From a candidate division FCPU426 bacterium (GTDB taxonomy: Bacteria; Oederibacteriota; Muellerivitia; Muellerivitales; Muellerivitaceae), in assembly GCA_963796105.1 (NCBI GenBank), contig CAWCKJ010000002.1, positions 32,001 to 96,000 of the forward strand: a stretch of 64,000 nucleotides of DNA. Reading direction: 5' to 3'. Positions within the stretch are counted from its first letter, which is position 1. Each line of letters starts with the position of its first letter. Of the stretch, positions 36,936 through 53,656 are shown in pieces. Position numbers and translations under genes: made by a program. The notes below the pieces were generated by a model, which had not been told where the DNA came from, did not search any database, and saw only the letters and a list, made by a program, of their open reading frames with translations.

Positions 36936-37547
36936 TCAGGAAAGATCTTCGGACCTTAAATAACGCTCCAAGGTTTTGGGACTCACATCCATAAATGTGG
37001 CGATCTTCCTTTTTTGCAATTTATTTGGACCCAGGAGTTGTTCCAAAAAAGTCCTCGTGAAAATACGTTTAGCTTGATTCAGATTGGTGTTTTGGTAGTA
37101 AGAACGCTCGATCGTTGAATAGGAGACACTGCCAAAGTTATCAACGCTGGACTCCCTAGACGGCGTACCCGCGAGAAATTCCTTGATCTTTTGCTCCAGC
37201 ACGGATGGTTCCCAAGCGACGCAAAGAACGTCTTGAAAACCCGACTTCAAAGCGGTCAACACATTGCTCAAATCCAGGGCTGAAAACAAGGCCATGCGCT
37301 GGGAGGTGGGCTGGATATGTTCAATCTCCGCGAATAAACCAAAGGCCCATTGCTGATTATGGATAAGATGCCAATCAATCAATAAAAAATCATAGGCGCG
37401 GCTGGTTAACTCATGAATGGCGTCCTTGATGTTATCCGCGGCTTTTGCGTCCCCGTATCGGGAACATACGTTCATGAGTACCGGCCGGAAATAAGCGTCA
37501 TCCTCGAGGATAAAAATATTTTGTTTTTTTGGGCTGATTGGAAGCAT
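36936..37547 (-). CDS. atypical response regulator: REC plus Fis-like HTH
   Basis: ILEDD..LLIDW receiver; C-terminal KIATFMDVSPKTLERYL HTH; paralog at 54113-54724. Confidence 0.75.
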   Translation of the reverse strand: MLPISPKKQNIFILEDDAYFRPVLMNVCSRYGDAKAADNIKDAIHELTSRAYDFLLIDWHLIHNQQWAFGLFAEIEHIQPTSQRMALFSALDLSNVLTALKSGFQDVLCVAWEPSVLEQKIKEFLAGTPSRESSVDNFGSVSYSTIERSYYQNTNLNQAKRIFTRTFLEQLLGPNKLQKRKIATFMDVSPKTLERYLRSEDLS

Positions 37548-38218
37548 GAGCTTCTTTCCTATAAGGATGTCTTTAATTTACCATAAGTGACCGCAACCTT
37601 AATACCAACCATTGGTACTTTTAAACATCGAGAGAACGGCCGACACCAAAATCAATCCCGTTTCAGCTTTTGGATTTCCTGATTCTCCATTAGTCATTCT
37701 ATGGTCCGTTAAGCGGGAAAATATACCCCTGCCTATTTCCCGCGTAAAATAAAGAAGATATCCGGATTTTCCAAGGTGACACTAAGCAAGGAGGGCCGCA
37801 CTTTGGAAGGGGTCAATAGCGTAATTTTGGGCCCCGTCATGGAATACAACCGTGTTAATTATGCAAAGAAAATAGGGTCTGGACGACATACTGCACAATA
37901 TTAGGCTTTTATGGATATTCCTCAGGTATTTCATTGAGTTCTAAAATTAAAAACTGCACAAATTCTGATCTATGCAAGCCCATGTCACGAGTTTAACGTT
38001 CATTGCCTGAAATATTAAAATGAAATAGGGAAACAGGAGTTAAAATAAAGCCTCTCGGGATAATGAACCCTTTCAATGAATGTCTTCATTGGAAATAATA
38101 AGCCCATAGTTTCCTTGGCATGGTTGGAAAGAAATATCTTGAATCTTCCTATCTTCGGTGATGAGTTAAACGACAATGGCTAAAATCTCAGTATCAACAT
38201 TTCCGGAAGGTTGAGCGA

Positions 38219-39631
38219 TTGAAACCCACCATATTAATAGTTGATGACGAGGAAAGCGTCAGGGAATCCCTGAAACTGATCCTGGAAGGGGATTACCACC
38301 TGGTATTCGCCGTGGACGCCAAATCCACCTTGGAGACATTAAAATCAAAGGCTTTTGACCTCTGCCTCCTGGATATCCTCCTGCCCGATGGAACCGGTAC
38401 CGACCTGTTGCGCCAGATCAAGCGCCGGGATGATTCATTGGAAGCCATCATGGTGACAGCCTTGCAAAGCGTGGACACTGCTTTGGAGGCCATGAAACTC
38501 GGGGCCTGCGACTATGTCACCAAGCCGTTTCAAGTGAAGGAACTCCTGGAAAAAATCAAGGCTGCCTTGAGTAAGAGGAACCTTAAAAAAGGTTTCCGGT
38601 TTTTAAAGGACGAGAACGAGCGTTTAATCCCGGCCAGTCTCACCGGAAAAAGCAAGGCCATTCAGGGGGTTCACGCGAGAATCAAGGAATTAGCCCAAAC
38701 CGGCGAGGCGGTCCTGATTAGGGGGGAAGCGGGAACAGGAAAAGCGGATGTTGCCTGGGAAATTCACCGCCAAAGCCCCCGCCAAAAGGGTCCTTTCGTC
38801 ACCATCGCCTGCGGAACCTTGTCCAAGAGCCAATTGAGCCTCGAGTTATACGGCCGGGAGGAGAAGGACGAGATCACCAAGCAGGACCAAATAGGGAAGC
38901 TGGAGTTCGCCGAGCATGGAACCCTTTACTTGGAGGATGTGGACAAGCTTTCCCTGGAGACCCAGGATGAACTGGCGAAAATATTTTTGGAGCGAAAAAT
39001 TCAATGGGGCAAAAAGCAAAAAGCCATATCCCTGGATTTCAGGCTCATCGCCTCCAGCGGGAAGGATTTGATCCCTGAGGTGGATAACCGAAAGTTCAGG
39101 GGCGCTTTTTACCAGTTATTAAGCTCCCAGACACTCCTGGTTCCGTCTTTGAGGGACCGCCGCGAGGACATTCCCGGGTTGATCCGGCATTTCCTGGAGG
39201 CCGCCAACCAAAAAGCCAATACGCCCGTCCAGGGCATTCACCAGGATGCCATCCAACTTTTTATGGAATACGGCTGGCCCGGAAACCTATGGGAATTGGA
39301 AAGCAGCGTCGAAACCATGGTGCTTTTCGCCGGCAAGGAGAACCTGGACGTGGAGGATGTGCCGCTGGCCATCCTGTCTAAAAAGATTGAAACGGCGAAG
39401 GCGAAGGCCCAAACGAAGGTCTCTCTCCGGAAACTCCGCCACCAATTTGAGCGCCAATACATCCGCAAGGTCCTGGAGCGCACCAGGGGAAACCAAACCC
39501 GGACCGCCGCCACCTTGGGCCTCCACCGAAATACCCTCATTTGGAAATTGAAAGAATTGGACCTGGAGGAGGATTACAAAAAAATCGTCAAGAAACGGCG
39601 CGAGGGCGGAGTCGGTTTCAGGGATTTGTGA
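38219..39631 (+). CDS. NtrC/AtoC-family response regulator with degenerate sigma54-interaction domain
   Basis: REC (IVDDE, LLDI, TKPF), GEAGTGK, WPGNLWEL, Fis HTH GNQTRTAATLGLHRNTL; GAFTGA absent. Confidence 0.9.
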   Translation: MKPTILIVDDEESVRESLKLILEGDYHLVFAVDAKSTLETLKSKAFDLCLLDILLPDGTGTDLLRQIKRRDDSLEAIMVTALQSVDTALEAMKLGACDYVTKPFQVKELLEKIKAALSKRNLKKGFRFLKDENERLIPASLTGKSKAIQGVHARIKELAQTGEAVLIRGEAGTGKADVAWEIHRQSPRQKGPFVTIACGTLSKSQLSLELYGREEKDEITKQDQIGKLEFAEHGTLYLEDVDKLSLETQDELAKIFLERKIQWGKKQKAISLDFRLIASSGKDLIPEVDNRKFRGAFYQLLSSQTLLVPSLRDRREDIPGLIRHFLEAANQKANTPVQGIHQDAIQLFMEYGWPGNLWELESSVETMVLFAGKENLDVEDVPLAILSKKIETAKAKAQTKVSLRKLRHQFERQYIRKVLERTRGNQTRTAATLGLHRNTLIWKLKELDLEEDYKKIVKKRREGGVGFRDL

Positions 39632-39892
39632 CGGCTCATTTCCGGGAATCGTTCTTTTCCCGGGCAAAGGACAGGCAAAGAATTTTCCAACCTCCAACAC
39701 CGCGCTTGACCCGGAACCATTAGCTTCTTTCAAGGCCTGTTTAGGGCGCGGGATTTTTCATTAGACGCTTAAAAATGATAGAAGACAAAGCCTGTCAACT
39801 AACCTCGCCAGAGCCTTTTATTTCCAGAAGGAATATTTCCTGCGGTAAAATTCTTTTTTCCCCGAAGTTTGGAATCATCAAGGAGTCATTCG

Positions 39893-41113
39893 ATGAAAAA
39901 GGTCGCTGTCACGGGTCTGGGGGTGATATGCCCTTTGGGGGACAACGCGGCTTCCGCCTGGGACGCCATGCTCCAGGGCCAGGTCGGGACCGGGAGCCTC
40001 CAGTTGATGGATCCCTCCCCCTATCGCGTGAAGATCGGCGGCGAGATCAAGAACCGCGCCCGCATCGAGGCCTTTGAGAAGGAAAACTCCGGCCGGTATG
40101 AAAGGGCCTCGGTCCTGGCCATACTCGCCGTGAGGGAGGCCTTGGACAACGCCGGTTTGAGCCAGACCGGGTTGGAGGACTTCCGGATCGGGAGTTTTTT
40201 CGGCACGACCATGGGGGAGGTCCAGCTGGCCGAGCGGTTATCGGAACTGGTTTCCCAAAACCGCTCGGGGGAAATCAAGGCGGAAAGTTTCCACAAGGTC
40301 CAGGGTTCCAGGATCGCCTTTTCAGTGTTGGAGGACTTGGGAATCGGCGGCCAAACCATGGTTTTTTCCAACGCCTGCGCTTCCGGGAATTACGCCATCG
40401 GCTGGGGTTTCGAGCAGATCCGGCAGGGAAACCTGGACTTGGCCCTTTGCGGGGGCGTTGATCCTTTTTCGCGGATCGCGTTCACCGGTTTCAACCGTCT
40501 CCTCTCCCTGACCCCCGACAAGTGCCGGCCTTTCTCGAAAAACCGCAAGGGTTTGGTCGTGAGCGAGGGGGTGGGAGTACTGGTGTTGGAGGATCTGGAC
40601 CGGGCCTTGGCGAGGGGCGTCCATGTTTATTGCGAGGTCGGCGGCTACGGCCTCGGGATGGACGCGCACCATATGACCTCCCCCCATCCGGAAGGAAACG
40701 GAGCTTATGAGAGCATCTTGAGGGCGTTGGACCAGGCAGGACTCTCACCTGGGGAAGTGGATTACATCTCGGCGCATGGCACAGGCACTCCCGCCAACGA
40801 CAAGACGGAATCCATCGCCATCAAGAAGGTGTTCGGCCCGGATCGCGCGATACCCGTCAGCTCCATCAAGTCCATGATCGGCCACACGATGGGGGCCGCC
40901 AGCGCCATCGAAGCGGCAATGACCTGCCTGTCCCTGGACCGCGGGATGCTTCTTCCCACCATGAACTGGGAAGTCACCGACGGGGACTGCGTCCAGGATT
41001 GCGTGCCCAACCGATCCCGTCCCTTCCAGGGTAAAACCGCGCTCTCCAACTCTTTCGCTTTCGGGGGAAACACCTCCTGCCTGGTCCTGGTAAAAAGGGA
41101 GGCGCGCCCGTGA
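39893..41113 (+). CDS. fabF: beta-ketoacyl-ACP synthase (FabF-like)
   Basis: Cys-His-His triad NACASG, SAHGTGT, GHTMGAA; SNSFAFGG. Confidence 0.92.
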   Translation: MKKVAVTGLGVICPLGDNAASAWDAMLQGQVGTGSLQLMDPSPYRVKIGGEIKNRARIEAFEKENSGRYERASVLAILAVREALDNAGLSQTGLEDFRIGSFFGTTMGEVQLAERLSELVSQNRSGEIKAESFHKVQGSRIAFSVLEDLGIGGQTMVFSNACASGNYAIGWGFEQIRQGNLDLALCGGVDPFSRIAFTGFNRLLSLTPDKCRPFSKNRKGLVVSEGVGVLVLEDLDRALARGVHVYCEVGGYGLGMDAHHMTSPHPEGNGAYESILRALDQAGLSPGEVDYISAHGTGTPANDKTESIAIKKVFGPDRAIPVSSIKSMIGHTMGAASAIEAAMTCLSLDRGMLLPTMNWEVTDGDCVQDCVPNRSRPFQGKTALSNSFAFGGNTSCLVLVKREARP

Positions 41114-42012
41114 AGCCGCTTTTCATCCAACGCAAGGGAGAGGCCATCCTGGGCCGGGGAGGGATCTCTTTAGATAACTTGCCGGTGGAATTCCAAAAGT
41201 TTTATCCAAACGAGTCGCCCAAATACATCGACCCTCTGTCCCTGCTGGCCGCCTTGGCCGCGGGACGGGCCCTGGAAGGGGTTGGGTCCTTGGCTGGGGA
41301 GGAATTCCGGGGGAATTTCGCGGTGGTTCTGGGTAATGGTTTCGGCGCCCTCGAAAGCTCATTGGATTTCGACCGGCAGGCCCTGCTCAAGGGCCCCAAT
41401 ACCGTCAATCCCATGGATTTCCCCAATACCGTGGCCAACGCGGCAGGAAGCAGGATCGGGATCTGGCTCCAACTCAAGGGGCCGAATGTGACCCTCACCA
41501 ACGGGGCGACCTCCTTCATCGACGCGGTCGGGTTCGCTTTTGAGGGGTATAACGCCGGGCTTTTTAAGCGGTGCCTGGCCGGTGCGGTGGAAAAGGTTCC
41601 GGCCTTCCTCAAACCCATGACAGGACAACCGGGAACAAAATCAGAATCCAGGGAAGGGGCATGCTTGTTGCTGGCATCCGAGGATCAGGAAAAGGAAAGT
41701 TTATTCGAGGTGGTTGATTTTTTTTCTGTACAATTGAAACCGGATTTAACCCTTCCCGAATTGTCCCCCGGCCGTTGGGAGGGATTGTGGGAGGGATTGT
41801 CCTGGCTGGGTTATCCGGCGGATACGCCCCTAGAGCCTCTTTTTCCCCGGAAAATCTCCCGGACTTTTCCTGATCCGTCCGTAATGGAACTGGGCTTAAG
41901 CGGTTTGGGGTCCTTGAACGCGTTTCTTGCGGCGCCGCAGCCGCTGGGGATGGTTGGCGCGTATTCCGGTGTTGATAAAAAAGTATCAATGATAAAAATA
42001 AAAAAGAAATAA
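41110..42012 (+). CDS. catalytically inactive ketosynthase N-terminal-like protein (chain-length-factor-like)
   Basis: VNPMDFPNTVANAAGSRIGI..LKGPNVT KS N-terminal motif; Cys position reads NGATSF; His motifs absent. Confidence 0.75.
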   Translation: MKPLFIQRKGEAILGRGGISLDNLPVEFQKFYPNESPKYIDPLSLLAALAAGRALEGVGSLAGEEFRGNFAVVLGNGFGALESSLDFDRQALLKGPNTVNPMDFPNTVANAAGSRIGIWLQLKGPNVTLTNGATSFIDAVGFAFEGYNAGLFKRCLAGAVEKVPAFLKPMTGQPGTKSESREGACLLLASEDQEKESLFEVVDFFSVQLKPDLTLPELSPGRWEGLWEGLSWLGYPADTPLEPLFPRKISRTFPDPSVMELGLSGLGSLNAFLAAPQPLGMVGAYSGVDKKVSMIKIKKK

Positions 42013-42025
42013 GGAGCCTTTAAAA

Positions 42026-42271
42026 ATGGAAACCACCGAAATTAAATCGAAAATCAAGGAAATCATCGCGGGCATGTTCGACGTCCAGCCTGGGGACATC
42101 CCCGACGCTAAACCGTTTCCTGAAATCTCGAAATACGATTCCATGAGGGCCTTGGAGTTCCTGGCCAAGTTGGAGACCGAGTTCAATGTCACCATCGATC
42201 CGGACCAACTCTACACAATGACAACGGTGGAAAAGACGGTAGAGGTCATCCGAAGCATGGTCAAGGACTGA
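42026..42271 (+). CDS. acpP: acyl carrier protein
   Basis: 81 aa, acidic; YDSM phosphopantetheine Ser; LETEFNVTI. Confidence 0.88.
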   Translation: METTEIKSKIKEIIAGMFDVQPGDIPDAKPFPEISKYDSMRALEFLAKLETEFNVTIDPDQLYTMTTVEKTVEVIRSMVKD

Positions 42272-42272
42272 A

Positions 42273-42722
42273 ATGGAAACGCCCAACGAGATCCAAGTTC
42301 AAACTTTGCTGAAACAACGCTATCCCTTTGTGATGGTGGATAAGGTCCTTTCCTGGGAGAAGTGGCGGGAACTCAAGGCAGTGAAAAATGTCACATTCAA
42401 CGAGCCCCATTTTCAGGGCCATTTTCCGGGATTCCCGATATTTCCGGGAGTCTTGACGATCGAATGTTTCGCCCAAGCCTCCGCTCTCCTGATCGGCCTT
42501 TCCCGGGATGAGCCCTTGGCCCCGGGTTTATTCGACGCCATTGGAACGGTCATGGATTTCCGATTGGAAAAACCCATCTTTCCCGGCGATCGCTTGGAAA
42601 GCAACGTGAAAATCGTCAAGATGGCGGGCTCGAATCGGATTTTGGAGGGGAAAATGTATGTGGATCAAGAGATCGTCGCGACTGGAAAAATGATTTTTGG
42701 GGAAATCAGATTGCCGAAATGA
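42273..42722 (+). CDS. fabZ: 3-hydroxyacyl-ACP dehydratase
   Basis: RYPFVMVD, KNVTFNEPHFQGHFP..PIFPGVLTIECFAQ. Confidence 0.92.
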   Translation: METPNEIQVQTLLKQRYPFVMVDKVLSWEKWRELKAVKNVTFNEPHFQGHFPGFPIFPGVLTIECFAQASALLIGLSRDEPLAPGLFDAIGTVMDFRLEKPIFPGDRLESNVKIVKMAGSNRILEGKMYVDQEIVATGKMIFGEIRLPK

Positions 42723-42757
42723 TTTATGGCGCTGAAAACCGCCGAAAAGGATGAGGG

Positions 42758-43477
42758 ATGAAAAAAATCGTTATCTCCGGCGGCTCTTCGGGAATCGGCA
42801 AGAGCCTGGTGGAAAAATTTTCCGAAAAGGGCTGGAAAGTCCACTTCACCTTTCATTCCAATGAGCCTTCAGCCCGGGAAATGGAACGGCGGTTCGAAGG
42901 CAAAATAAAAGCCCATAAGTTGGATGTCACGAATCGCGAGGCCTGCGACCAATTTTGCAAGAACGTTCTAAAAGAGGAAGGAAGCGTTGACGTATTGGTC
43001 AATAACGCGGGTATCACAAGGGACAAACCGCTTTTTGTCATGAAAGACGAGGATTGGTCGGAAGTCTTGAACACGAACCTTTCCGGGGTTTTTTACCTAA
43101 CACGGGCTTTTGTACTGGACATGTTGAAAAAGAAAAGGGGCCGAGTGGTCAATATCTCATCCGTCTCCGGCCTTCACGGACTCCCGGGGCAAACCAACTA
43201 TTCCGCCTCGAAAGCCGGGATCATTGGGTTCACCAAGGCCCTGGCCAAGGAAGCGGGCCCCTACGGCGTGACGGCCAATGTGGTGGCTCCCGGAGGCGTT
43301 ACAACGCCCATGATCGAGAAAATGACTCCGCAGGCCAAGGAAGCCATTCTCCAGGCGGTGCCGCTCAAAAGGTTTTGCGAGCCGGAGGAAGTCGCGCGGG
43401 TGGTATTTTTCTTGGCTGAGGAAGCCCCGAATTATATGAACGGCAGTGTCCTGGTCCTGGATGGCGGGGCGGGGTGA
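42758..43477 (+). CDS. fabG: 3-oxoacyl-ACP reductase
   Basis: SGGSSGIG, NNAGITRD, GQTNYSASK. Confidence 0.92.
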   Translation: MKKIVISGGSSGIGKSLVEKFSEKGWKVHFTFHSNEPSAREMERRFEGKIKAHKLDVTNREACDQFCKNVLKEEGSVDVLVNNAGITRDKPLFVMKDEDWSEVLNTNLSGVFYLTRAFVLDMLKKKRGRVVNISSVSGLHGLPGQTNYSASKAGIIGFTKALAKEAGPYGVTANVVAPGGVTTPMIEKMTPQAKEAILQAVPLKRFCEPEEVARVVFFLAEEAPNYMNGSVLVLDGGAG

Positions 43478-43484
43478 AAGGAAT

Positions 43485-44270
43485 ATGAAAGACAAGTTTC
43501 CGGATATAAAGGCCGATGAAATCCATATCCACCTTCTCTGGACAGAGCCAATAGGATTCCTGAATAACATGATTGAATTCCTGCCCCTTTTGCCCCCAGA
43601 CGAACAAGAAAAATACAAGCATTTCGGATCGGAAAGGCGGCGGCGGGAGTTCTTATCGTCCCGTTTACTGGTGCGCCATCTCCTAGCTGGATATTTGAAC
43701 AAGCCAATGGAAAGTATGGAATTCGGCTACTTGGAGCGGGGAAAACCCTTTGTTGAAGGCGCGGAATTACATTTCAATCTTTCTCATACTGACGGCCTCA
43801 TCGCTTGTTCTTTTGGCTGGGATGAGGTTGGGATTGATGTGGAAAAAGCGGATACCCAAGCACGGCCGAATTGGCGCCTCCTGGCAAAGAGATATTTTTT
43901 ATTGGAAGAACAAAATTTCCTGAATGGGCTATCGGAGGTGGATCAACCCATAACTTTTTTCAGGATATTCACCGCGAAGGAGGCTTTAGGTAAGGCCACG
44001 GGGCGGGGTATCAACTTCCAATTAAATGATTGTAATGTTCCTTTACCGCCCGTGGAACGCGCCCGGATGGGCCAGTGGGAATTTTTCTCAAAAACAATCA
44101 ACCGGGATGTTTATTGCATGGCGCAAGTTACTAACAATCCGACAAGCGTTCCGCTGAGATATCAAATTCGGTACTGGGGTGAGGAAAGTTTAATGGATTT
44201 CCTTCAACAGGATTTTTTCGAACGTCCTGGAAATCAAACCGCGGGCTTGCAAAGGGGGATATCCATATGA
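43485..44270 (+). CDS. Sfp-type 4'-phosphopantetheinyl transferase
   Basis: GKP..FNLSHT, VGIDVE, FTAKEALGKATG. Confidence 0.92.
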   Translation: MKDKFPDIKADEIHIHLLWTEPIGFLNNMIEFLPLLPPDEQEKYKHFGSERRRREFLSSRLLVRHLLAGYLNKPMESMEFGYLERGKPFVEGAELHFNLSHTDGLIACSFGWDEVGIDVEKADTQARPNWRLLAKRYFLLEEQNFLNGLSEVDQPITFFRIFTAKEALGKATGRGINFQLNDCNVPLPPVERARMGQWEFFSKTINRDVYCMAQVTNNPTSVPLRYQIRYWGEESLMDFLQQDFFERPGNQTAGLQRGISI

Positions 44271-45031
44271 AGACGAGTGGGAACACAGTTTTGATTACCG
44301 GGGGAGGGTCGGGGATTGGTTTGGCCTTGGCGAAGGAATTTTTAACCCGCGGGAATACGGTTGTGGTTTGCGACCATAAGGCACAGAGGCTTCGAGAGGC
44401 CAAAAAGGCAAATCCTGAGCTCCAAACAATTCTTTGCGATGTCAGAAGCCCAGCGCAACGCAAAAGGCTGATTGCCGCCGTGATAAAAAAGTTTTCAAAG
44501 CTTAATGTGCTTGTCAATAACGCGGCGGTGTCCATGTGGCATGATTTTGTTGTCCCGGAAAAGGATCAAAGCGTTCGGATTCAACAACAAATCGAGACTA
44601 ACATTTTGGCTCCTATCGAATTGACCAGGCTATTCCTCCCACACATTCTCAAGCAGGATTATTCCGCATTGGTATATATCACTTCAGGCCAGGCCTATGT
44701 TCCGCTTTCAAAAAAGGCCGTTTATGCGGCCACGAAGGCGGCCATTCATTCTTTTTCGCAATCGATCAGGTACCAGCTCAAGGACCGCCCGGTTTTAGTG
44801 ATGGAGGCCTTGCCCTCTTGGGTGGACACGGACATGATCAGGGACCTGGCCATAAAAAAGATGTCCCCTGAAAAGGTCGCCGGGGAAATATTGGCGGGGT
44901 TGGAGGAAAACACGCAAGAGCTCCGGATTGGCTTATCGGGCCTTTTATTTCACCTCAGCCGTTTGATGCCGCGCATGATGTGGAAGAAATTCAACGATTA
45001 CGCGCCAACGCCAAAAATGGATAAATTTTAA
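44267..45031 (+). CDS. short-chain dehydrogenase/reductase (DltE-like)
   Basis: TVLITGGGSGIG, NNAA, YAATK. Confidence 0.9.
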   Translation: MKTSGNTVLITGGGSGIGLALAKEFLTRGNTVVVCDHKAQRLREAKKANPELQTILCDVRSPAQRKRLIAAVIKKFSKLNVLVNNAAVSMWHDFVVPEKDQSVRIQQQIETNILAPIELTRLFLPHILKQDYSALVYITSGQAYVPLSKKAVYAATKAAIHSFSQSIRYQLKDRPVLVMEALPSWVDTDMIRDLAIKKMSPEKVAGEILAGLEENTQELRIGLSGLLFHLSRLMPRMMWKKFNDYAPTPKMDKF

Positions 45032-45056
45032 CCACTACGCACGGAAAAAAAGGCCC

Positions 45057-46598
45057 ATGGAAAAGACCCGACAATTCGACGCGATCGTCATCGGCTCAGG
45101 CATGGGCGGTTTAGCGGCCGCTTCCCTATTGGCCCAGATGAAGCGATACCGGGTTCTTGTTTTGGAAAGACATTTCAAGTTGGGGGGATTCATCCAGTCC
45201 TTTCAACGGCCAGGCGGTTACCATTGGGATGTGGGACTCCATTATGTGGGTGAGTTGGAGTCGAGAAGCCCCTACCGCCAGGCTATGGATTACATCACGG
45301 CAGGCCGGTTGAAATGGGTCAAAATGAAGGACCCTTTTGATGTGTTCCTCTATCCCGACTTGAGATTTGAGGTTTCCTCCGACCGCGCTGATTACCTGCG
45401 GAAACTCCAGGACCTTTTTCCTCAGGAGTCCGGACCCCTCCAGGATTATTTCTTGGATATCATCCGGGTCCGTGAAATCCTGATTGGGCGGTGGCTTCCA
45501 TCCGCTCAAATGCTGAAACGCGAGGAAGCCTACCGCCAAAATTATGATTTGATCCGGCAAACCCTCCAAACCTACCTCGATTCCCATTTCAGGGACAGCC
45601 GGCTCAAGGGTCTTTTGGCTTCGCAATGGGGTAATTACGGTCTGCCCCCGAAATTGGCTAGTTTCGGGACCCATGCCGCCACGGTTCGTCATTATTTGGA
45701 CGGGGGATATTATCCTTCCGGCTCCTCTTCCGCATTGGTGGACGTTCTCGCGGAAATTGTGAGGGAGGCGGGAGGCGAGCTTAAGACACGGCACCGGGTG
45801 GTCCGCATCCTAGTCGAGGACCGGAAAGCCAGGGGAGTGGAGGTGGAGACTTTGGGCGGACGGGTCAGGTTCGATGCCCCGGAAATATACTCGGACGCGG
45901 GCGCGGAGGCGACCTACAATGGGCTTCTTTCGGAAGAAACGCACGCTCCCGAGATCCTTAAGGAACTTTCCAATTCGCCGGTCCATGGGGTCGTTGTCCT
46001 GTACCTCGGCTTGAAATCCACCTGCGGATCTTTAGGCGTTCACGGGCAGAATTTTTGGATCTACGAACATTATGATCATGACGCGATGTGGGAAAATAGA
46101 AATTCCCTCGCGGGGGGGAAAGCCTCTTATTGCTTCCTTTCATTTCCCGGAATCAAGGACCCGGGCGCTAAAGCGCCCACGGCGGAAATTATCGCGGACC
46201 TTGACTACGATGTCTTCCAAACCTGGCGAGACAAGGAGTGGATGAGACGCGGGAGGGATTATTCAGCCTTGAAGACGAAGATCACCGAAACATTATTAAA
46301 TTTTGTAGAATCGAGGTTGCCGGGTTTCCGTAAGGAAGTGGCCTACGCCGAGCTGTCCACGCCCCTTACCGTCAAGCATTTCACTGGTTACCGCGGCGGG
46401 AACATTTACGGATTTCCCGGTGTTTCCAGCCGGTATGAAATGGAATGCTTTAAACCCAATACTCCCATTGAGGGCTTGAAACTCGTCGGCGTGGACGCGG
46501 GATCCTCCGGCATTTCCGGGGCGATGTTTGGCGGCCTTTTAGGCGTCGCGGCCCAGCATGGAAACGCCATTTTTCACGGACTGGCAAAAGGGAATTGA
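45057..46598 (+). CDS. FAD-dependent oxidoreductase, phytoene desaturase / retinol saturase family
   Basis: VIGSGMGGL, LERH..LGG, WDVGLHY, STPLT..GNIYG. Confidence 0.88.
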   Translation: MEKTRQFDAIVIGSGMGGLAAASLLAQMKRYRVLVLERHFKLGGFIQSFQRPGGYHWDVGLHYVGELESRSPYRQAMDYITAGRLKWVKMKDPFDVFLYPDLRFEVSSDRADYLRKLQDLFPQESGPLQDYFLDIIRVREILIGRWLPSAQMLKREEAYRQNYDLIRQTLQTYLDSHFRDSRLKGLLASQWGNYGLPPKLASFGTHAATVRHYLDGGYYPSGSSSALVDVLAEIVREAGGELKTRHRVVRILVEDRKARGVEVETLGGRVRFDAPEIYSDAGAEATYNGLLSEETHAPEILKELSNSPVHGVVVLYLGLKSTCGSLGVHGQNFWIYEHYDHDAMWENRNSLAGGKASYCFLSFPGIKDPGAKAPTAEIIADLDYDVFQTWRDKEWMRRGRDYSALKTKITETLLNFVESRLPGFRKEVAYAELSTPLTVKHFTGYRGGNIYGFPGVSSRYEMECFKPNTPIEGLKLVGVDAGSSGISGAMFGGLLGVAAQHGNAIFHGLAKGN

Positions 46599-46645
46599 AG
46601 GAAAAACAAGCTTCATCGCGCATGAAAATTTAATCAGGGAATCGA

Positions 46646-48064
46646 GTGGCCATGGCCGTGTCAACGAGTAAGGACATGTTTATTGTTTGCCGGAACAGCC
46701 AGGGAACGGAGTTCCGCGCCACGCTGCTGCGGCTGATGCAGTACACGGTCGTTTTCGAGGTCTACAATCCCTATAGCATCATTCAATTGGGGGAGGTCCT
46801 GACCAATTTCAAAATGGTCCTGAATGACCGCGTGGTTTATTCCGGAAAGGCCGTGGTCAGCAATTTGGTGAATACGGGAATCCTTCTGGTTTGCGAATGC
46901 ACCTTGGAAGAGAGCTGGTTGGACGTGAACGCATTCGCCTCCATACACAAGGAGGAAAGGCTCCAGGAGGAGTTCCAGGGATTTTTGAGGGATTGGGAGA
47001 AATTCCACCAAATCGACGATAAGCTCAAGGTGGCGGTGGCTGATTTGCAGACCTTCCTATTGGATGTCAGGCGTTGGCTGGAACAAGTGGAATTGGGCAT
47101 TCGTTCCGACCCCGCCAGGGAGCGAAGCCGGATGGAAATGGATGTTATCCTGAAATTGAGGGGTTCCATGTCCCCCGCCATTGACAAGCTTTTCCAGCGT
47201 TTCGAGAAAACGGCCGCCAGTATTCCCGAGGAATTCCGGGCCATCCATTGGTCCTACAGCAAGCAGCAGCTTCATCCCCTCATGCTATGCTCGCCATTTG
47301 TCTACCGGGTTTACCATAAACCTCTGGGTTACGCGGGTGATTACGAAATGATTAACATGATGTTGAGGGACCCTTACGAGGGCGCGTCTCTTTTCGCCAA
47401 GATATTGAACATTCACTTTCTGGACACGTCGCCTTGCCGGGCGCACCGGAACCGCATCAAGACTTTGACGCGGAATCTCAGGCGGGAGGCGGGGCGTGTA
47501 TTGAGGGAAAAAGGGGAGTTTCGGATCATCAATATGGGATGTGGGCCCGCCAAGGAAATCCAGGACTTTATCGTCGAAGAGGAACTGAGCGACCGCTCGA
47601 GTTTTGTCCTGATGGATTTTAACGATGAGACGTTGGAATATGCCGAAAAAACCTTGGAGGATGTAAAAAGGAAGCACCACCGTAGGGCTCGGATCCAAAT
47701 GGTCAAAAAATCGGTCCACCAAATCCTGAAGGAATCCTTCAAGGCTCCCGGCCCCCAAGAAATGAATTACGATTTCATCTATTGCGCCGGGTTGTTTGAT
47801 TATCTGGAGGACAGGATCTGCAAAAGATTGATGGAATATTTTTACGGCCTGTTGTCACCTGGTGGATTATTGCTTGCCACCAACGTGACCCCCAATAGTC
47901 CCATCCGGAATATCCTGGAAAGCCTGCTGGAGTGGCCGATGGTTTACCGGAACGCTGAACAAATGTCGGCCCTCATCCCCGACTTGGCGGGGAAAGGCTC
48001 CTTTAAAGTTTATACTGAGGAAACCGGTGTCAATATTTTCGCGGAAGTGAGGAAAGCCGGATGA
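46646..48064 (+). CDS. phcB: PhcB-like SAM-dependent methyltransferase (fatty-acid methyl ester signal synthase family)
   Basis: KPLGYAGDYEM, AHRNRI, MGCGPAKEI (SAM motif), YCAGLFDYL; about 470 aa; directly upstream of a membrane kinase and a REC-kinase regulator, as in phcBSR; recognised from memory, not by search. Confidence 0.75.
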   Translation: MAMAVSTSKDMFIVCRNSQGTEFRATLLRLMQYTVVFEVYNPYSIIQLGEVLTNFKMVLNDRVVYSGKAVVSNLVNTGILLVCECTLEESWLDVNAFASIHKEERLQEEFQGFLRDWEKFHQIDDKLKVAVADLQTFLLDVRRWLEQVELGIRSDPARERSRMEMDVILKLRGSMSPAIDKLFQRFEKTAASIPEEFRAIHWSYSKQQLHPLMLCSPFVYRVYHKPLGYAGDYEMINMMLRDPYEGASLFAKILNIHFLDTSPCRAHRNRIKTLTRNLRREAGRVLREKGEFRIINMGCGPAKEIQDFIVEEELSDRSSFVLMDFNDETLEYAEKTLEDVKRKHHRRARIQMVKKSVHQILKESFKAPGPQEMNYDFIYCAGLFDYLEDRICKRLMEYFYGLLSPGGLLLATNVTPNSPIRNILESLLEWPMVYRNAEQMSALIPDLAGKGSFKVYTEETGVNIFAEVRKAG

Positions 48065-50700
48065 ACAGGGATCTGCTCACCCAACCAGCAATGAAGAAGT
48101 TGTTCGCCGAGTATAACAGCCGCGAATGGGTGCGTTTGTTTAAGGTGGCATGTTGGGTTTGCGCTATCGCCATGCCTTCCGCGGTTTTCCTGGACATGAT
48201 CGACTATCCAAACTATGTCGCTTATTTCCTTGAGCTTCGGTTGGTTTGCGTGGCGCTAGCGATGGTTCTTTTGGGGGTGGTTTATACCCCCTGGGGGCCG
48301 CGCCACCAGTACATCTTAACCCTGTTCCTGGCCATCATCCCCCAGGGTTTCGTCTGTTGGATGATCTACATTACCGATGGCGCTGTTTCACCTTATTACC
48401 AAATCCTGAACCTGCCATTACTCATTTACTGCCTATTGTTCCCCTGGACCTACCTGGCAACCTTCAGTCTTTCCATCATCACCATGGTTTTTTACCTTAC
48501 CGCGTGTTTCGCGCATGGTGGGGCATCGGGAAGCGGGTTATTCCTCAGCAACATCATCTTTCTTCTTTACACGGTTTCTTTCGCGGTGATCGGGAGCTAT
48601 TTCACCAATGGCCTCCGCGCCAGGGAATTCATTTCCCAGTTCGAGCTGGACCAGAGCCGGAAACAGCTCGAGGAATCCAACCAAAAACTCGTCGAAATGG
48701 ACTTGGCTAAAAACCGGTTTTTCGCCAACATCAGCCACGAGTTGAGGACGCCCCTGACCCTGCTCCTTTCCCCGCTGGAATCGATCCAGAAGATGAAATC
48801 CCACCTGTTGGATGAGGAAACGAAGGGCGTCCTGAGCCTCATGCATAACAACGCCATGAGGCTGTTGAAGCTCATCAATGATTTGCTGGACCTGGTCAAG
48901 CTGGAGTCCGGCCGCACGGAAGTGAGCAAGGGCCCCCTCAAGGTGGAGGAGTTCATCAAGGGGCTGGCCCTATCCGTCCAACCGGCGGCTAAGGAAAAAA
49001 GGATCGCTCTTTCAACCACGGTGGGTGTCGCTTTGGGGACGATCCTGGCGGATCAGGACAAGCTGGAAAAGATCACCTTGAACCTGCTTTTTAATTCCTT
49101 GAAATTCACCCAGGCGGGGGGGCTGATCGAGCTTTCCGCGAATGCCGAGGGCCCATTCCTAGTGTTGAAAGTGAAGGACACGGGCATGGGAATCTCGGAA
49201 CTGGACCTGCCGCGCATATTCGACCGGTTTTGGCAGGCCGATACCTCCTCCCAACGCAAGTACCAGGGCACGGGCATCGGCTTAGCGCTGGTGAAGGAGC
49301 TCGCCGAGGCCATGGGCGGATCCATTTCAGCCGAAAGCCAGATGCATAAGGGCACGGCCATCTCCGTCAAGATTCCCCTCGAACGGCCTAAAGAAGAAGC
49401 GGCCAGCCTGCCGGATGTTTCTTCCGGGGCCGCCCCAGCCGGGGAAAAGGCTGAGTCCCCGGAATGGCTCTCCAGCCTCTACCGCAGGGCGGAGCTTTTC
49501 CCGGCCATCACCCCAGTCTCGGAAACCATCCGCCGGGACGATTTCAGCTCCGGCAAACCCAAGGTCCTGGTGGCCGACGACGAGCCGGATATGCTGCGCT
49601 ACCTGAGATCCCAATTGGAGGGGAATTTCACGGTCTTGGAGGCCGTGGATGGGAACCAGGCCGTGGAAAAAACGAGGCAGTTTCTTCCCGACCTCGTGCT
49701 CTTGGACATGATGATGCCGGAGAAAGACGGGGTGCAGGCCTGCCGCGAGATCAAATCCTCGGTCTCCACCCAATCCATTCCCGTGATCCTCCTGACCGCG
49801 CGGGCCGACGAGGAGACCCGCATCGCGTCCCTCAACGTGGGCGCGAACGACTTCCTGACCAAGCCTTTTTCCGCGACGGAATTGCACATTCGGGTCCGCA
49901 ACCTGGTCCAATCCCACGGGTATCAAAAAGATTTGGCCCTTGAAAAAAGTGCACTGGAAACGACACTCGAGCAGTTGAAGGAGACGGAGGGACAATTGGT
50001 ACAAAACGAGAAAATGGCTTCCCTCGGCCGCCTGAGTGCCGGTATCATCCATGAGATCAACAATCCCCTGAACTATTCCGTGGCGGCCCTGAGGCTCCTG
50101 CGGCCGCGGGAGGCGCAGCTTCCGGAAGAGGAGCGGGCCAAGTTCAAGGAGACCCTGGCCGACATCGAGGAGGGACTGGGTCGGGTCGCGGGAATCGTCT
50201 CGGATTTGCGGGCCTTCAGCCACCCGAAATCAGGCGGGATGGACCTGATCGACCTGGAGGATGTCGTCTCATTCTCCCTGCGCTTCCTGAACCATGAGCT
50301 GGCGGACAAGGTGAGGGTCGAGGTGGAGGTGCCGGGGGATCAGAAGGTGCTGGCGGACAAGAACAAACTGACCCAGGTTCTCATCAACCTGATCCAGAAT
50401 TCCCTCGACGCCTTCAAACGGAAGGATTTCCAGGGCGAGAAGCCGGTGATCTCGGTCAAAAGCCGGCAGGTGGATGGAAAGGTCCTGGTGGAATTCCGGG
50501 ACAACGGATCGGGAATTGGGGAGAAGGACTTGGACAAGATTTTCGACCCCTTTTACACCACGAAGGACGTGGGGGAGGGGATGGGGCTGGGCTTGAGCAT
50601 TTGCTACAAGGCGATGATGGACCAGGGCGGGAAAATCTCGGCGGCGAGCGAGAGGGGGAAATTCACACTTTTCACCCTGGAACTTCCCTCGGGGACTTAA
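48061..50700 (+). CDS. PhcS-like membrane hybrid histidine kinase (TM-HisKA-HATPase-REC-HisKA-HATPase)
   Basis: About 6 TM helices; SHELRTPL; GTGIGL; REC ADDE..LLDMMMP..TKPF; second IHEINNPL and GMGLGL. Confidence 0.88.
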   Translation: MNRDLLTQPAMKKLFAEYNSREWVRLFKVACWVCAIAMPSAVFLDMIDYPNYVAYFLELRLVCVALAMVLLGVVYTPWGPRHQYILTLFLAIIPQGFVCWMIYITDGAVSPYYQILNLPLLIYCLLFPWTYLATFSLSIITMVFYLTACFAHGGASGSGLFLSNIIFLLYTVSFAVIGSYFTNGLRAREFISQFELDQSRKQLEESNQKLVEMDLAKNRFFANISHELRTPLTLLLSPLESIQKMKSHLLDEETKGVLSLMHNNAMRLLKLINDLLDLVKLESGRTEVSKGPLKVEEFIKGLALSVQPAAKEKRIALSTTVGVALGTILADQDKLEKITLNLLFNSLKFTQAGGLIELSANAEGPFLVLKVKDTGMGISELDLPRIFDRFWQADTSSQRKYQGTGIGLALVKELAEAMGGSISAESQMHKGTAISVKIPLERPKEEAASLPDVSSGAAPAGEKAESPEWLSSLYRRAELFPAITPVSETIRRDDFSSGKPKVLVADDEPDMLRYLRSQLEGNFTVLEAVDGNQAVEKTRQFLPDLVLLDMMMPEKDGVQACREIKSSVSTQSIPVILLTARADEETRIASLNVGANDFLTKPFSATELHIRVRNLVQSHGYQKDLALEKSALETTLEQLKETEGQLVQNEKMASLGRLSAGIIHEINNPLNYSVAALRLLRPREAQLPEEERAKFKETLADIEEGLGRVAGIVSDLRAFSHPKSGGMDLIDLEDVVSFSLRFLNHELADKVRVEVEVPGDQKVLADKNKLTQVLINLIQNSLDAFKRKDFQGEKPVISVKSRQVDGKVLVEFRDNGSGIGEKDLDKIFDPFYTTKDVGEGMGLGLSICYKAMMDQGGKISAASERGKFTLFTLELPSGT

Positions 50701-50728
50701 ACCCGCCCAAAAGAATTCGGAGAGGCTC

Positions 50729-51991
50729 ATGGAAAATTTATACGATTACAAGAAATTTTACGTCCTTTACGTGGACGACGAGCTGAAGTCCCTCAAGTAT
50801 TTCAGGGAGACCTTCGGGGAGAAGTTCGCCATCCTGACCGCCGTCAACGCGGAGGAGGGCTTCCGGATCCTGAAGGAGAACCAGACCACGACCGCGGTGC
50901 TCATGACCGACCAGCGCATGCCGGGGGAGAAGGGCGTCCAGCTTTTGGAGAGGGCCCGGCAGTTGAACCCGCGCGTCCTGCGCATCCTCATCACAGCCTA
51001 CTCGGACCTGGACACGGCCATCGATTCCGTCAACGTGGGGGCCATCTACAAATACGTCACCAAGCCCTGGGACATTCCCCAGTTGGAGGTCACCTTGAAG
51101 AGGGGCATCGAGTTCTTCATCGTCCAATCCGAGAGGGACCAACTTCTCCGCGAGAAAATCTCCACCCTCTACAACGTCATGCTGACCGACCGGATCCTGG
51201 GCCTGGGCCTCCTGGCCACGGGCCTGAGCCACCACATCCGCAATTCCCTGGTGGCGGTCAAGACCTTCCTGGACCTGGCCCCCGTGAAATTGAAGGAGGA
51301 AAACCTGGACCTGGACCAGATGAGGAACGCGGATTTCTGGAAGGAATACTACAAGAAAGTCCAGGGCCAGATGGACAAGGTGGCCGGGCTGTTGAACGAC
51401 CTATGGGAGTCCTCAGAGCGCCCGTACATCGAGTTTCCCGACCAGATGAGGGCGGGCCAGGCGCTGGGGGAGGCCCTCGCGAAGGCCGGGCCTGATTTGG
51501 AAAAGAAGGGGATTGCCGTGGAGAACCGGATACCCGCGGACCTCCCCGACCTGAGGGTGGACAAGAAAAAATTCCTGCGGTTGTTCGAGCTACTTCTCCG
51601 GGAGGAGGCCTCCGCCCTGCCTTCTGGGAGCCGGGTGGGTTTCACCGGCCGGGTGGCCGGGCCCAAGGGCGGGCCGGAGGAAATCCAGATCGAGATGGAG
51701 GACAACGGGCCGGCCTTGAGCGAGTCCGCCTCCAGGTCCCTGTTCGATCCCTTTTTCGTGCGAACCGCCAACCCCCAGGAGTTCGGGCTTTACCTCATGA
51801 CCTGCTTTTTCATCGTCTACCATCACGGCGGAAGGATCGCTGCCAGCCGTGATGAGAAGCGCGGAAACATCCTGACGATCACCCTGCCCTTGAACCCGCC
51901 CGTACAGGTTTCCGGCGCCGACCAGCGGGATTTCATCAGCAAGATCCTCATCAACGAGTCCATGTGGGAGCGGCTTCTTTCGGGAATTTGA
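50729..51991 (+). CDS. PhcR/PhcQ-like response regulator with degenerate kinase-like output domain
   Basis: YVDDE..TDQRMP..TKPW receiver; SHHIRNSL H-box; eroded ATPase boxes (EFGLYL). Confidence 0.82.
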   Translation: MENLYDYKKFYVLYVDDELKSLKYFRETFGEKFAILTAVNAEEGFRILKENQTTTAVLMTDQRMPGEKGVQLLERARQLNPRVLRILITAYSDLDTAIDSVNVGAIYKYVTKPWDIPQLEVTLKRGIEFFIVQSERDQLLREKISTLYNVMLTDRILGLGLLATGLSHHIRNSLVAVKTFLDLAPVKLKEENLDLDQMRNADFWKEYYKKVQGQMDKVAGLLNDLWESSERPYIEFPDQMRAGQALGEALAKAGPDLEKKGIAVENRIPADLPDLRVDKKKFLRLFELLLREEASALPSGSRVGFTGRVAGPKGGPEEIQIEMEDNGPALSESASRSLFDPFFVRTANPQEFGLYLMTCFFIVYHHGGRIAASRDEKRGNILTITLPLNPPVQVSGADQRDFISKILINESMWERLLSGI

Positions 51992-52455
51992 TTGGCGGGA
52001 TCTCAACCGGCTATTGGGTTTTTTAAATATTTTTAGTTATTTTTTTATAATTTGTCGGGCCGGTAAAACTGCTCAATATCTGACCCTTGCTTTCAAGCTC
52101 CTGGATTTTCATTGCCAATATCCTCGGAATAAAATTGCCCGATTCCGGCATCGGTCTGCTGATCGAATTTTTCCGGGTGGATAATTCATGGCAGGCCCCT
52201 TGATTCAGCGGTAAACTATCCCCGTCAATTAATTTTTAACACGCCCTGTGAATTCCTTCACCGGGTTATCATCATCAAAGTTTCCCTCAACGGTTTCCGA
52301 CTCGGGTGAAGCCGCCAACAATAAATATCTCAACCGTCTCTTTTCACTTTTTCAGAAACCGGTATCGGGTCTCCAGGTATTTCTATCTTCAAAAAAGCGG
52401 GTTCGAGCCGTTGGAATGCTTGCGCTTGGATTCGCGGCGTGGAAGGGAGTCGGTC

Positions 52456-52872
52456 ATGGAAAGCTTGTTATTCGTCACGAGGGAAGTTTCCGTCGGGGGT
52501 GAGGCCGTCATCCTAAGGCTGGAGGGGACGCTGGATGTCACCACGGTCGTGCAATTCGAGGCCAAGCTCCAGGAACTCGTTTTGGACCGGAAACTCAAGA
52601 TCATCGTCAACCTGGAGAAGCTATCCTACATTTCCAGCGCCGGCATAGGGGTTCTGGTTTATTTCAACCAGTTCCTGAGGAACAACCGCGGGAGCATCAT
52701 CCTGACCAACGTCAACCGGGAGACCTTCAGGATTTTCGAGTTGCTGGAGCTTCCCGAGCTGTTTCAAATCATGGTCGCGGAGAAGGACGCCTTGAGTGAG
52801 TTCGAGGGGATCAGGAAGGCCCCTTCCCTCAGGCTGAACCCCGTGCGGCTGTTCGAGGAGTCCCATGCTTGA
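52456..52872 (+). CDS. STAS-domain anti-sigma factor antagonist
   Basis: LEGTLD..LSYISSAGIG phosphorylatable Ser motif; ATG at 52456 with GGGAG RBS. Confidence 0.88.
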   Translation: MESLLFVTREVSVGGEAVILRLEGTLDVTTVVQFEAKLQELVLDRKLKIIVNLEKLSYISSAGIGVLVYFNQFLRNNRGSIILTNVNRETFRIFELLELPELFQIMVAEKDALSEFEGIRKAPSLRLNPVRLFEESHA

Positions 52873-53248: not shown

Positions 53249-53413
53249 TCGCCACTCGTTATTGCCAAATATATTCATCCCGCCACCCGCGAACTTTTCC
53301 GGCAAATATGCAAATCCGATAAACCGTTTAACGGTTTTCCATCCTTTTTCGATGACCCGAAGTATTCCCCAGGCGTTATCCTTTCTGTAAATATTTCGTA
53401 TCGCGAGGCCCGT

Positions 53414-53656
53414 ATGGAGCAGAGGGAAATCAAGCAGTGCTTCATCGCCCGGAAAAATGTGTTCATGATCCGCGAGCTGGAAATGGCTATTGACGAGGCT
53501 GGATTCATCCAAAGCAGGGTGAGGAAAAAGTGCAGTGAGGCCGGTCTTTGCGACCAGAACAATATCATGTGCAAATGGGTTTCAATGGATTTTCATTCCG
53601 ACGGAATGGACCAAAGGGGCTCCCCACCACTAGAAGCAAATCCCCAGGACAATTAA
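53414..53656 (+). CDS. small hypothetical protein
   Basis: 80-aa ORF with GAGG RBS; no recognisable motif. Confidence 0.3.
   Translation: MEQREIKQCFIARKNVFMIRELEMAIDEAGFIQSRVRKKCSEAGLCDQNNIMCKWVSMDFHSDGMDQRGSPPLEANPQDN

Follow-up and report, generated by a model that had tools for sequence, protein, structure and literature searches.

Does a quorum-sensing operon of the Phc type that carries its own acyl-chain-building genes make a signal of its own? Two chain lengths are known for Phc signals, which are drawn from primary fatty acid synthesis. In the window analyzed here, a 64,000-bp stretch of DNA from a candidate division FCPU426 bacterium to which all positions refer, a sequence-only reading had proposed a tightly packed, co-oriented run of genes from a ketosynthase (KS) to a REC-kinase. 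The run was confirmed: eleven ORFs, all present in the proposed order, occupy 39893-51991 on the plus strand with gaps of -4 to 53 bp (in order: -4, 13, 1, 35, 7, -4, 25, 53, -4, and 28 bp). The gap between FabG and the phosphopantetheinyl transferase (PPTase) is 7 bp from the ATG at 43485 and -32 bp from a GTG, and that between the flavoprotein and the methyltransferase is 53 bp, or 47 bp if the latter starts with the GTG at 46646. The NtrC-type gene with which the proposed interval had opened (38219-39631, plus strand) proved to lie outside the tight run, 261 bp before the KS ATG. With this gene counted, all 12 genes are under purifying selection (dN/dS 0.08-0.34 against G051, a genome of the same genus). 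Scans for sigma-70 and terminator signals stayed at chance level (8 vs. 8.4 expected and 21 vs. 23.8, respectively), and an Rfam search of 36000-55200 gave 0 matches.

The cassette opens with an active KS (39893-41113, plus strand, as are all genes of the run), whose Cys-His-His residues are intact (C170, H303, and H339, numbered from the TTG at 39869); among solved structures it matches amxFabF2 best (9S5H chain B, E = 6.8e-109), then B. subtilis FabF and the ishigamide KS. Next to it lies a 300-aa, Cys-less KS homolog (41110-42012) with Ala133 at the site of the catalytic Cys; its F104, T107, and V108 align with the tunnel residues F135, T138, and V139 of amxFabFmut. Both proteins find their best solved match in the heterodimer of the anammox "ladderane cluster I", and by homology to 9S5H the KS and its dead partner are predicted to form a heterodimeric KS/CLF pair, with CLF standing for chain-length factor. 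Further downstream are a dedicated ACP (42026-42271; Ser39 in a YDSM motif), closest among solved structures to the ishigamide ACP (6KXF chain C), a FabZ-type dehydratase with its His/Glu dyad motifs present (42273-42722), a FabG-type ketoreductase (42758-43477), an Sfp-type PPTase (43485-44270), an SDR oxidoreductase (44267-45031), and a CrtI/RetSat-like flavoprotein of the CrtI superfamily (45057-46598), whose nearest Atlas cluster is named all-trans-retinol 13,14-reductase. An acyltransferase is absent from the cassette, the names FabI, FabK, and FabV do not occur among the best 25 NCBIfam hits of any cassette protein, and no FabK scored above cut-off in the genome.

A housekeeping role for the cassette was rejected, since a separate fabH-fabD-fabG-acpP-fabF operon exists on another contig. 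Ladderane synthesis was also rejected, since the cobalamin-dependent radical SAM enzyme of cluster I is absent, there being none among the eleven genes or in 12 related cassettes. The earlier suggestion of a dedicated, ACP-bound fatty acid synthase stood in part: the set is dedicated and has its own ACP and PPTase, but with its KS/CLF it looks more like a highly reducing type II PKS than a plain fatty acid synthase, judging from sequence. Polyene-forming members of that class are described as being made up of KS-CLF, KR, and DH (PMC10698177). Like the ishigamide (Iga) and aryl polyene systems, the present cassette has KS-CLF, KR, DH, and its own ACP without a recognizable enoyl reductase, whereas at its end PhcB and a receptor take the place of an NRPS, a ligase, or an acyltransferase, and an adenylation enzyme for an aryl starter is lacking. 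With anammox cluster I (amxFabF2/amxFabFmut, amxACP, amxFabZ, a phytoene dehydrogenase homolog, and radical SAM) it shares, besides the best solved match and the conserved tunnel residues, the presence of FabZ and ACP in one cluster and a flavoprotein that is alike at the level of the phytoene-dehydrogenase superfamily. It differs in lacking radical SAM, in a CLF of 300 rather than 412 aa that is placed after the KS, and in the presence of FabG, PPTase, and PhcB. Considering that in vitro the closest solved KS/CLF gave acetoacetyl-ACP as its sole product and favored C8 probes (bioRxiv 10.64898/2026.05.19.726425), a long polyene is not assured.

The PhcB-family, SAM-dependent methyltransferase (46652-48064) matches Cupriavidus taiwanensis PhcB (P0255) at 39% over 465 aa (E = 5e-120). 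The 90% cluster of P0255 includes a member named PhcB, and close homologs of the methyltransferase are named [quoted passage not shown]. Cupriavidus and Paraburkholderia proteins served as references in place of those of Ralstonia solanacearum. No solved relative of PhcB was found by sequence (best E = 0.008), and its AlphaFold model has a mean pLDDT of 76, with residues 1-99 below 50. A PhcB-like domain also closes a trans-AT PKS, as KS-ACP-MT (E = 4e-25). Directly after phcB, and overlapping it by 4 bp, is the ORF of a membrane hybrid kinase (48061-50700) with the layout TM-HK-REC-HK and predicted phospho-sites H226, D549, and H664; it consists of a PhcS-like polytopic membrane sensor domain (residues 1-195; 48061-48645) and a cytoplasmic HK1-REC-HK2 part (48646-50700). 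The P. graminis gene in the PhcS position matches the TM (30%, E = 6e-20) and HK2 (39%, E = 1e-56). Since PhcS thus matches the TM plus the second kinase, with an extra HK-REC inserted between them, a PhcS-PhcR fusion was rejected. The proposed PhcB and PhcS identities of methyltransferase and kinase hold, with one amendment: the membrane domain is PhcS-like, but the protein is not a simple PhcS, as two HK modules flank a REC.

The REC-kinase (50729-51991), with a PhcR/PhcQ-like REC and a degenerate kinase tail, is one gene in place of separate phcR and phcQ; its domain layout is as described for PhcR, and its REC is nearer the fourth P. graminis gene (42% vs. 31%). As in the phcBSRQ operon of the Ralstonia solanacearum complex and Cupriavidus, whose known signals are 3-OH-PAME and 3-OH-MAME, a membrane kinase resembling PhcS and then a REC protein come after a full-length PhcB homolog. 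Unlike that operon, the present one places an acyl-chain cassette before phcB, inserts an extra HK-REC after the membrane domain and ahead of the PhcS-like kinase, comprises three signaling genes instead of four, and has no linked PhcA. The best NCBIfam match of the kinase is LvrA/LvrB, at 300 bits against a cut-off of 1200 (REC-kinase, 31 against 500), and Leptospira LvrA/LvrB likewise pairs an HK-REC-HK kinase with a REC-HK protein. The input differs: LvrA is described as taking its input through a cytoplasmic PAS domain and as devoid of membrane helices (PMC5863495), whereas here the input is a PhcS-like membrane domain with a hydrophobic N-terminus.

The sequence-only reading was to fall if the cassette never co-occurred with phcB elsewhere. 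Results showed a CLF ortholog in 13 of 99 genomes of the phylum, with phcB at the cassette in all 13 (G049, in which the two are split over two contig ends, is counted among them), while 13 other phcB genomes have no cassette. Mismatched pairs were found in neither direction (cassette with non-carrier PhcB, 0/13; carrier PhcB without cassette, 0/13). Most often the operon has no cassette (53 of the 55 metagenome loci that were informative), and this cassette-less phcB-kinase form is widespread in uncultured bacteria: of 8000 scored candidates, at least 5622 protein clusters reached E <= 1e-10. In the literature searched, largely non-subscription journals, we found no description of phcB beside a KS/ACP cassette. 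Within the cassettes, the SDR occurs in 4 of 13 and the flavoprotein in 6 of 13, so both are optional in relatives; in G048, the flavoprotein gene lies between phcB and the kinase. Since Ralstonia PhcB is reported to use its cognate fatty acids (PMC7912708) and a thioesterase is present in only one of the 13 cassettes (G063), chain release is unexplained.

Phylogenies showed what else sorts with the cassette. Its carriers group together as a single clade in PhcB (13 of 25 rows, 100/99) as well as in the kinase TM (11 of 23 rows, 99/97), the carrier rows being related by kinship and not independent; when the long-branch row of P. graminis is added, the carrier group comes out unresolved in the careful PhcB tree. 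Label shuffling on the two trees never gave fewer than 4-5 changes, as against 1 observed. A single carrier clade was rejected in GyrB (p = 4.9e-10), the kinase core (3.9e-59), REC-HK2 (1.3e-11), the REC-kinase (6.8e-10), and an upstream PD-(D/E)XK gene (2.4e-6), and the switch from sorting by cassette to sorting by species falls at kinase residue ~190-200. Diagnostic columns number 11 in PhcB and 6 in the TM vs. 0 in both the kinase core and the REC-kinase. Amino-acid convergence alone was rejected as the cause of the PhcB clade, since the signal is spread over all five PhcB segments (for two of them, the clade was only "not rejected"); silent sites also count against it, as phcB differs at 63 of 103 between the sisters G066 and G065 and gyrB at 43 of 210. 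SDR carriers form a nested clade (PhcB, 97/97; TM, 100/100), a grouping spotted only after the trees were seen, whereas the flavoprotein tracks no sensor clade. In addition, in two pairs of sister species, the DNA upstream of the KS in the carrier (G068, G066) matches the DNA upstream of phcB in the partner without a cassette (G069 and G065, respectively; E = 7e-11 and 2e-10; the top 2 of 110 pairs, with 0.009 the best of the reversed control), an element absent from the window's own 261-bp gap (22 vs. 21.9 expected by chance).

Cassette and phcB, along with the first ~195 codons of the kinase, behave as one specificity block that can be exchanged, and differing blocks would give strains different dialects. 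The proposal of a signal set by the cassette was strengthened, since PhcB and the sensor domain sort by cassette and the rest of the kinase by species. In staphylococcal agr, the signal-making genes and the sensor N-terminus vary as a block within a conserved locus; the likeness is a mechanistic analogy only, with no sequence homology, a lipid ester here in place of a peptide, and a block that gains or loses a whole cassette. A grouping of synthase and sensor against the species tree is also known from Ralstonia, in which PhcB and PhcS are described as grouping by signal type and PhcR, PhcQ, and PhcA by phylotype (PMC8578825); here, only the membrane domain and not the whole kinase sorts with PhcB.

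Since the kit, the maker, and the membrane part of the sensor co-occur across related species as a matched set, the likely product of the kit is a private fatty-ester signal, probably an unsaturated one. We consider it fairly probable that the locus is a PhcB/PhcS operon whose cassette likely builds an unsaturated chain, to be turned by PhcB into a diffusible methyl ester that is the predicted ligand of the kinase. The locus likely represents a swappable signal-specificity module with a chain made by dedicated enzymes. In such a pathway, the PPTase would prime the private ACP, host FabD would supply malonyl, as the cassette has no acyltransferase, and KS/CLF would start and extend the chain. 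Cycles of FabG and FabZ without an enoyl reductase would leave double bonds, the optional SDR and flavoprotein would adjust the oxidation state, and PhcB would methylate the carboxyl group of the released acid or act at the ACP. The ester would then bind the kinase membrane domain and set off H226-D549-H664-D61 phosphotransfer to the REC-kinase, so that only matching cells would hear it. A more specific version, which we offer tentatively, is that a lineage changes its signaling dialect by placing a polyene-type mini-PKS, related to the anammox ladderane KS/CLF, ahead of phcB and swapping it together with the ligand-binding domain of the receptor, the ester being new and polyunsaturated and the optional genes defining nested sub-dialects.

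It is unlikely, in our estimate, that the cassette feeds PhcB with an ordinary 3-hydroxy or saturated acid of fixed length, giving a chain-length homolog of 3-OH-PAME/MAME and no new chemistry. A host reductase could act on the chain in trans, the SDR or the flavoprotein could take an atypical enoyl-reductase role, FabG and FabZ are normal FAS II parts, and the closest solved KS/CLF is described as chain-length-setting in a fatty-acid pathway; known PhcB enzymes, moreover, are reported to take 3-hydroxy acids (PMC7912708). However, 7 of 13 cassettes do without the flavoprotein and 9 of 13 without the SDR, the best solved match of the ACP belongs to a polyene PKS, and a dedicated set of KS/CLF, ACP, and PPTase would be a high price for a product through which housekeeping synthesis already passes. 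Improbable, too, is a cassette that is a quorum-controlled passenger for an unrelated lipid or pigment, with PhcB drawing on primary fatty acid synthesis. Physical linkage alone can carry neighbors together, most phcB loci have no cassette, the widest gap of the run is often the one ahead of phcB (in most, 37-162 bp), and within the carrier group the trees of KS and CLF track genera more than the PhcB tree. This very difference between trees implies that cassette and phcB were uncoupled, yet the count of mismatched pairs is zero each way; in addition, a tailoring gene interleaves with phcB in G048, and the optional SDR sets apart a clade of its own in both PhcB (7 diagnostic columns) and the sensor (11). 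Nor does the cassette contain a transporter, an acyltransferase, or a glycosyltransferase such as a structural lipid would call for. Very improbable is a reading in which the ester serves as a secondary metabolite or as a lipid of the envelope, with the kinase acting as a product-feedback sensor instead of a cell-density receptor, for although no PhcA-like LysR is near the locus (the genome has one LysR match, on another contig), allele-matched synthase and sensor under exchange is the pattern reported for Ralstonia phc and S. aureus agr, and the FadL or OprB outer-membrane channel genes that precede phcB in 9 of the metagenome proteins scanned suit an exported and re-imported molecule.

If the reading as a private, cassette-built ester signal is true, bacterial signals would include a new class with its own chain-building line, and a lineage would gain a private channel by exchanging synthase and sensor together, as one block. 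In our search, the anammox cluster I pair has its nearest relative in this KS/CLF; a full product of that pair has not been made in vitro, and owing to the relation the product of the present KS/CLF could inform the ladderane precursor question. The kit is compact and has its own PPTase and ACP, and under the more specific version above the ~8-kb cassette would be a tractable model for products of the KS/CLF class. As to output, the NtrC-type regulator (REC-AAA-HTH, without the GAFTGA loop) lies near the phc module in 5 of 25 relatives; it is loosely associated, was rejected as a fixed part of the module, and is a possible candidate for an output regulator. A 203-aa receiver-domain protein (36936-37547, minus strand) is a possible output partner, and its homologs lie near the phc module in L037, L038, L040, and L198.

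The window's locus is a new variant that joins two systems of known kind, Phc signalling and a KS/CLF acyl-chain cassette; in the literature, as far as its text was available, we found no description of phcB accompanied by such a cassette. Searches with Pfam and NCBIfam showed that the co-oriented run proposed in the sequence-only reading is real and coherent. Eleven ORFs at 39893-51991, in one orientation and with intergenic gaps of -4 to 53 bp, encode in order a KS, a KS N-terminal-only protein, an ACP, FabZ, FabG, an Sfp-type PPTase, an SDR, a CrtI-superfamily flavoprotein, a class I methyltransferase, a hybrid kinase, and a REC-kinase. With the same-genus genome G051 as reference, dN/dS was 0.08-0.34 in 12 of 12 genes tested. 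The host's 4.98-Mb genome (contig GC 0.47-0.53) is one of 31 in its family, within a phylum of 99. Since it carries a separate housekeeping fabH-fabD-fabG-acpP-fabF operon (fabH and fabD assigned by reading sequence starts), the cassette is additional. Downstream of the operon, genes for a STAS protein, a PilZ protein, a second REC paralog of 203 aa (54113-54724), and a Cache-multi-PAS-GAF hybrid kinase of 1882 aa occupy 52306-60825; they are not conserved at this position in relatives. At 6001-12000, GC skew is very strong (0.37-0.69) and AT skew negative, probably because the minus strand codes for low-complexity repeats.

The methyltransferase had been proposed to be a PhcB homolog, and this was borne out by its match (39% identity, 465 aa, E 5e-120) to P0255, a Cupriavidus taiwanensis protein used as reference rather than an R. 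solanacearum sequence, whose 90% cluster includes members named PhcB. Its close homologs are named 'extracellular factor (EF) 3-hydroxypalmitic acid methyl ester biosynthesis protein'. Immediately 5' of phcB, several other lineages have genes for outer-membrane channels, either FadL (L082, L113, L115, L093) or OprB (L059, L118, L124, L127, L128). The adjacent membrane kinase proved PhcS-like in part. A Paraburkholderia graminis plasmid carries a four-gene phc-like operon without a cassette, and the product of gene 2 matches the window kinase in the membrane domain (30% identity, E 6e-20) and, at 39% (E 1e-56), in the second kinase module, but much more weakly in the first module (28%, E 1e-13). 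The window kinase is therefore PhcS-like with an extra HK-REC, and the simple PhcS form did not hold. Its layout is that of Leptospira LvrA (PMC5863495), from which it differs by its membrane input. In layout, the final gene is a REC-kinase like that described for PhcR (PMC8578825), but its sequence is closer to the fourth P. graminis gene. Of the 80 metagenome loci surveyed, 74 extend 300 bp or more beyond phcB, and in 73 of these a kinase follows; where the downstream sequence reaches 2.8 kb or more (34 loci), it is always the long form. Close to the module, some relatives again have an NtrC-type regulator that lacks GAFTGA and a REC protein of 203 aa; on contig C12 of the window's own genome, a paralog of the regulator (61%; L195:8150-9559), split into two ORFs, adjoins a homolog of the REC protein. 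At L092, phcB lies between two full-length membrane HK-REC-HK genes. The G063 kinase gene is apparently interrupted by ~1.7 kb (L031:9186-13824), and that of G049 is split over two frames.

Among solved structures, the KS and its Cys-less partner (CLF) best matched chains B (E 6.8e-109; next-best 1.9e-78) and C (E 4.2e-22; next-best 3.6e-11) of 9S5H. Residue matching would identify this entry as the pair amxFabF2/amxFabFmut of Brocadia fulgida: Cys165, Phe203, Ser296, Ala297, and His298 of the published enzyme (bioRxiv 10.64898/2026.05.19.726425) map to chain B at a constant offset of 5, and chain C fits in having the tunnel motif F-x-x-T-V and, at the position of the Cys, Val. That pair is reported as a KS/CLF-like heterodimer with acetoacetyl-ACP as sole product and a preference for a C8 probe (bioRxiv 10.64898/2026.05.19.726425). 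The window CLF retains the tunnel motif (F104, T107, V108), which is invariant among 22 aligned homologs, and its family is small (65 clusters, each at least 50% identical). The ACP best matched the ishigamide ACP among solved structures; polyene-forming HR type II PKSs consist of KS-CLF, KR, and DH (PMC10698177). The Atlas cluster nearest to the flavoprotein bears the name all-trans-retinol 13,14-reductase, and phytoene dehydrogenases come next; reduction, desaturation, or isomerisation of a double bond is therefore a possible activity of this enzyme. The cassette has no radical SAM gene, and ladderanes are therefore not expected. A solitary second cassette-type ACP (73-74% identical, Ser kept, no KS nearby) occurs in the window's own genome (contig C14, L194:8213-8461) and in G051 (C61:8081-8314), the two genomes of this genus and no others, near a TraG/VirB4-like ATPase and a GGDEF-TPR gene.

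We consider it quite probable that the cassette feeds PhcB, whatever the chemistry, and somewhat favor the fuller reading, in which an unsaturated cassette-made chain becomes a PhcB ester signal for the adjacent kinase. Chain release is the weakest step, because PhcB is reviewed as acting on cognate fatty acids (PMC7912708), yet 12 of 13 cassettes lack a thioesterase gene. By analogy, one system offers a lead for PhcB acting at the carrier: a trans-AT PKS that includes a beta-branching set, on Enterobacter ludwigii plasmid NZ_CP134637.1, whose last protein (L199:12727-15864) ends KS-ACP-MT, the MT being a PhcB-like domain (E 4e-25) that shares the motif KPxGYAGDxE. This domain occupies the place where a thioesterase would be expected and is a candidate methylating release domain.

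In the phylum, phcB occurs in 26 of 99 genomes (25 of the 31 in the family and one in a sister family). The cassette-phcB association was found again in 12 further genomes, i.e., 12 of 25 relatives, and the cassette was absent from phcB in 13. CLF orthologs (E < 1e-80) were confined to these 12 and the window's genome; all other matches were FabF-type (E > 1e-11). Core genes are constant, except that a thioesterase replaces FabG in G063 (L031), while SDR (4/13) and flavoprotein (6/13; between phcB and kinase in G048) vary; the G049 cassette is divided between two contig ends. The cassette is present at 2 of the 55 metagenome loci whose sequence extends 1 kb or more upstream of phcB, and PhcB identity is at most 59% in all 53 others. 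Circumstantially, 16 of the 26 CLF clusters on contigs of at least 10 kb have a contig of the same length as that of one of the best 35 of 120 PhcB rows; another five are on contigs seen directly and five are unplaced.

A PD-(D/E)XK gene lies immediately 5' of KS in 4 carriers and of phcB in 7 non-carriers (in 2 others it is more distant by one gene); thus, the cassette is an insertion or deletion at one locus. The flanks of the window's own copy differ from this arrangement. The 300 bp 5' of KS in G068 and G066 matched the 300 bp 5' of phcB in their cassette-less sisters G069 (E 7e-11) and G065 (E 2e-10); of 110 pairs, these two scored best (best reversed control, E 0.009). The cassette therefore separates phcB from the phc upstream region, and G065, on a short contig, is a non-carrier. 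A GACA-A-rich-CAAC element occurs 5' of KS in 6 of 10 and 5' of phcB in 5 of 11; it was not found in the window's own gap 5' of KS.

With the carrier group fixed from gene content ahead of any tree, carriers formed one clade for PhcB (13/25 rows, support 100/99) and for kinase residues 1-195, the membrane domain (11/23 rows, 99/97), with one change observed vs. at least five and four, respectively, in 300 label shuffles. These trees exclude two rows with long branches, P. graminis and G043; a careful tree including P. graminis left the carrier group open. A single carrier clade was rejected by GyrB (24 rows, 6 changes, p 4.9e-10), kinase core (23 rows, p 3.9e-59), REC-HK2 (20 rows, p 1.3e-11), REC-kinase (18 rows, p 6.8e-10), and PD-(D/E)XK (12 rows, p 2.4e-6). 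Through PhcB and the membrane domain, sliding identity placed G068 nearer other carriers than its sister G069, and from about kinase residue 200 this was reversed. PhcB segments recovered the carrier clade in 3 of 5 cases and did not reject it in 2. Fourfold-site differences are consistent with exchange: between G066 and G065 they number 43/210 for gyrB and 63/103 for phcB; between the window's genome and G051, 161/345 for gyrB, 34/165 for phcB, and 17/83 for the membrane domain, although FabZ and ACP are as low as the latter two. The four SDR carriers, a group picked out after the trees were seen, are a nested clade for PhcB (97/97) and membrane domain (100/100) that GyrB rejected (3 rows, p 0.0017); metagenome locus L055, which has an SDR, falls within it in both trees. 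KS and CLF trees track genera more closely, so that within the carrier group the cassette core and phcB have become uncoupled; even so, cassette and allele class were never mismatched among the carriers and non-carriers compared. In Ralstonia, PhcB and PhcS cluster by signal type and PhcR, PhcQ, and PhcA by phylotype (PMC8578825; PMC11960443), and phcB/phcS are under balancing selection, likened to agr (PMC6580516). By this precedent, the carrier clade would mark a different signal. Cassette-less modules have beside them either a cytochrome P450 gene, 3' of the REC-kinase (G072 and G069), or a family 2 glycosyltransferase gene (G070, G056, and G060) (L041:12466-13848, L047:16491-17831, L043:16496-17626, L049:2133-3341, L051:2257-3414); these are possible other tailoring genes.
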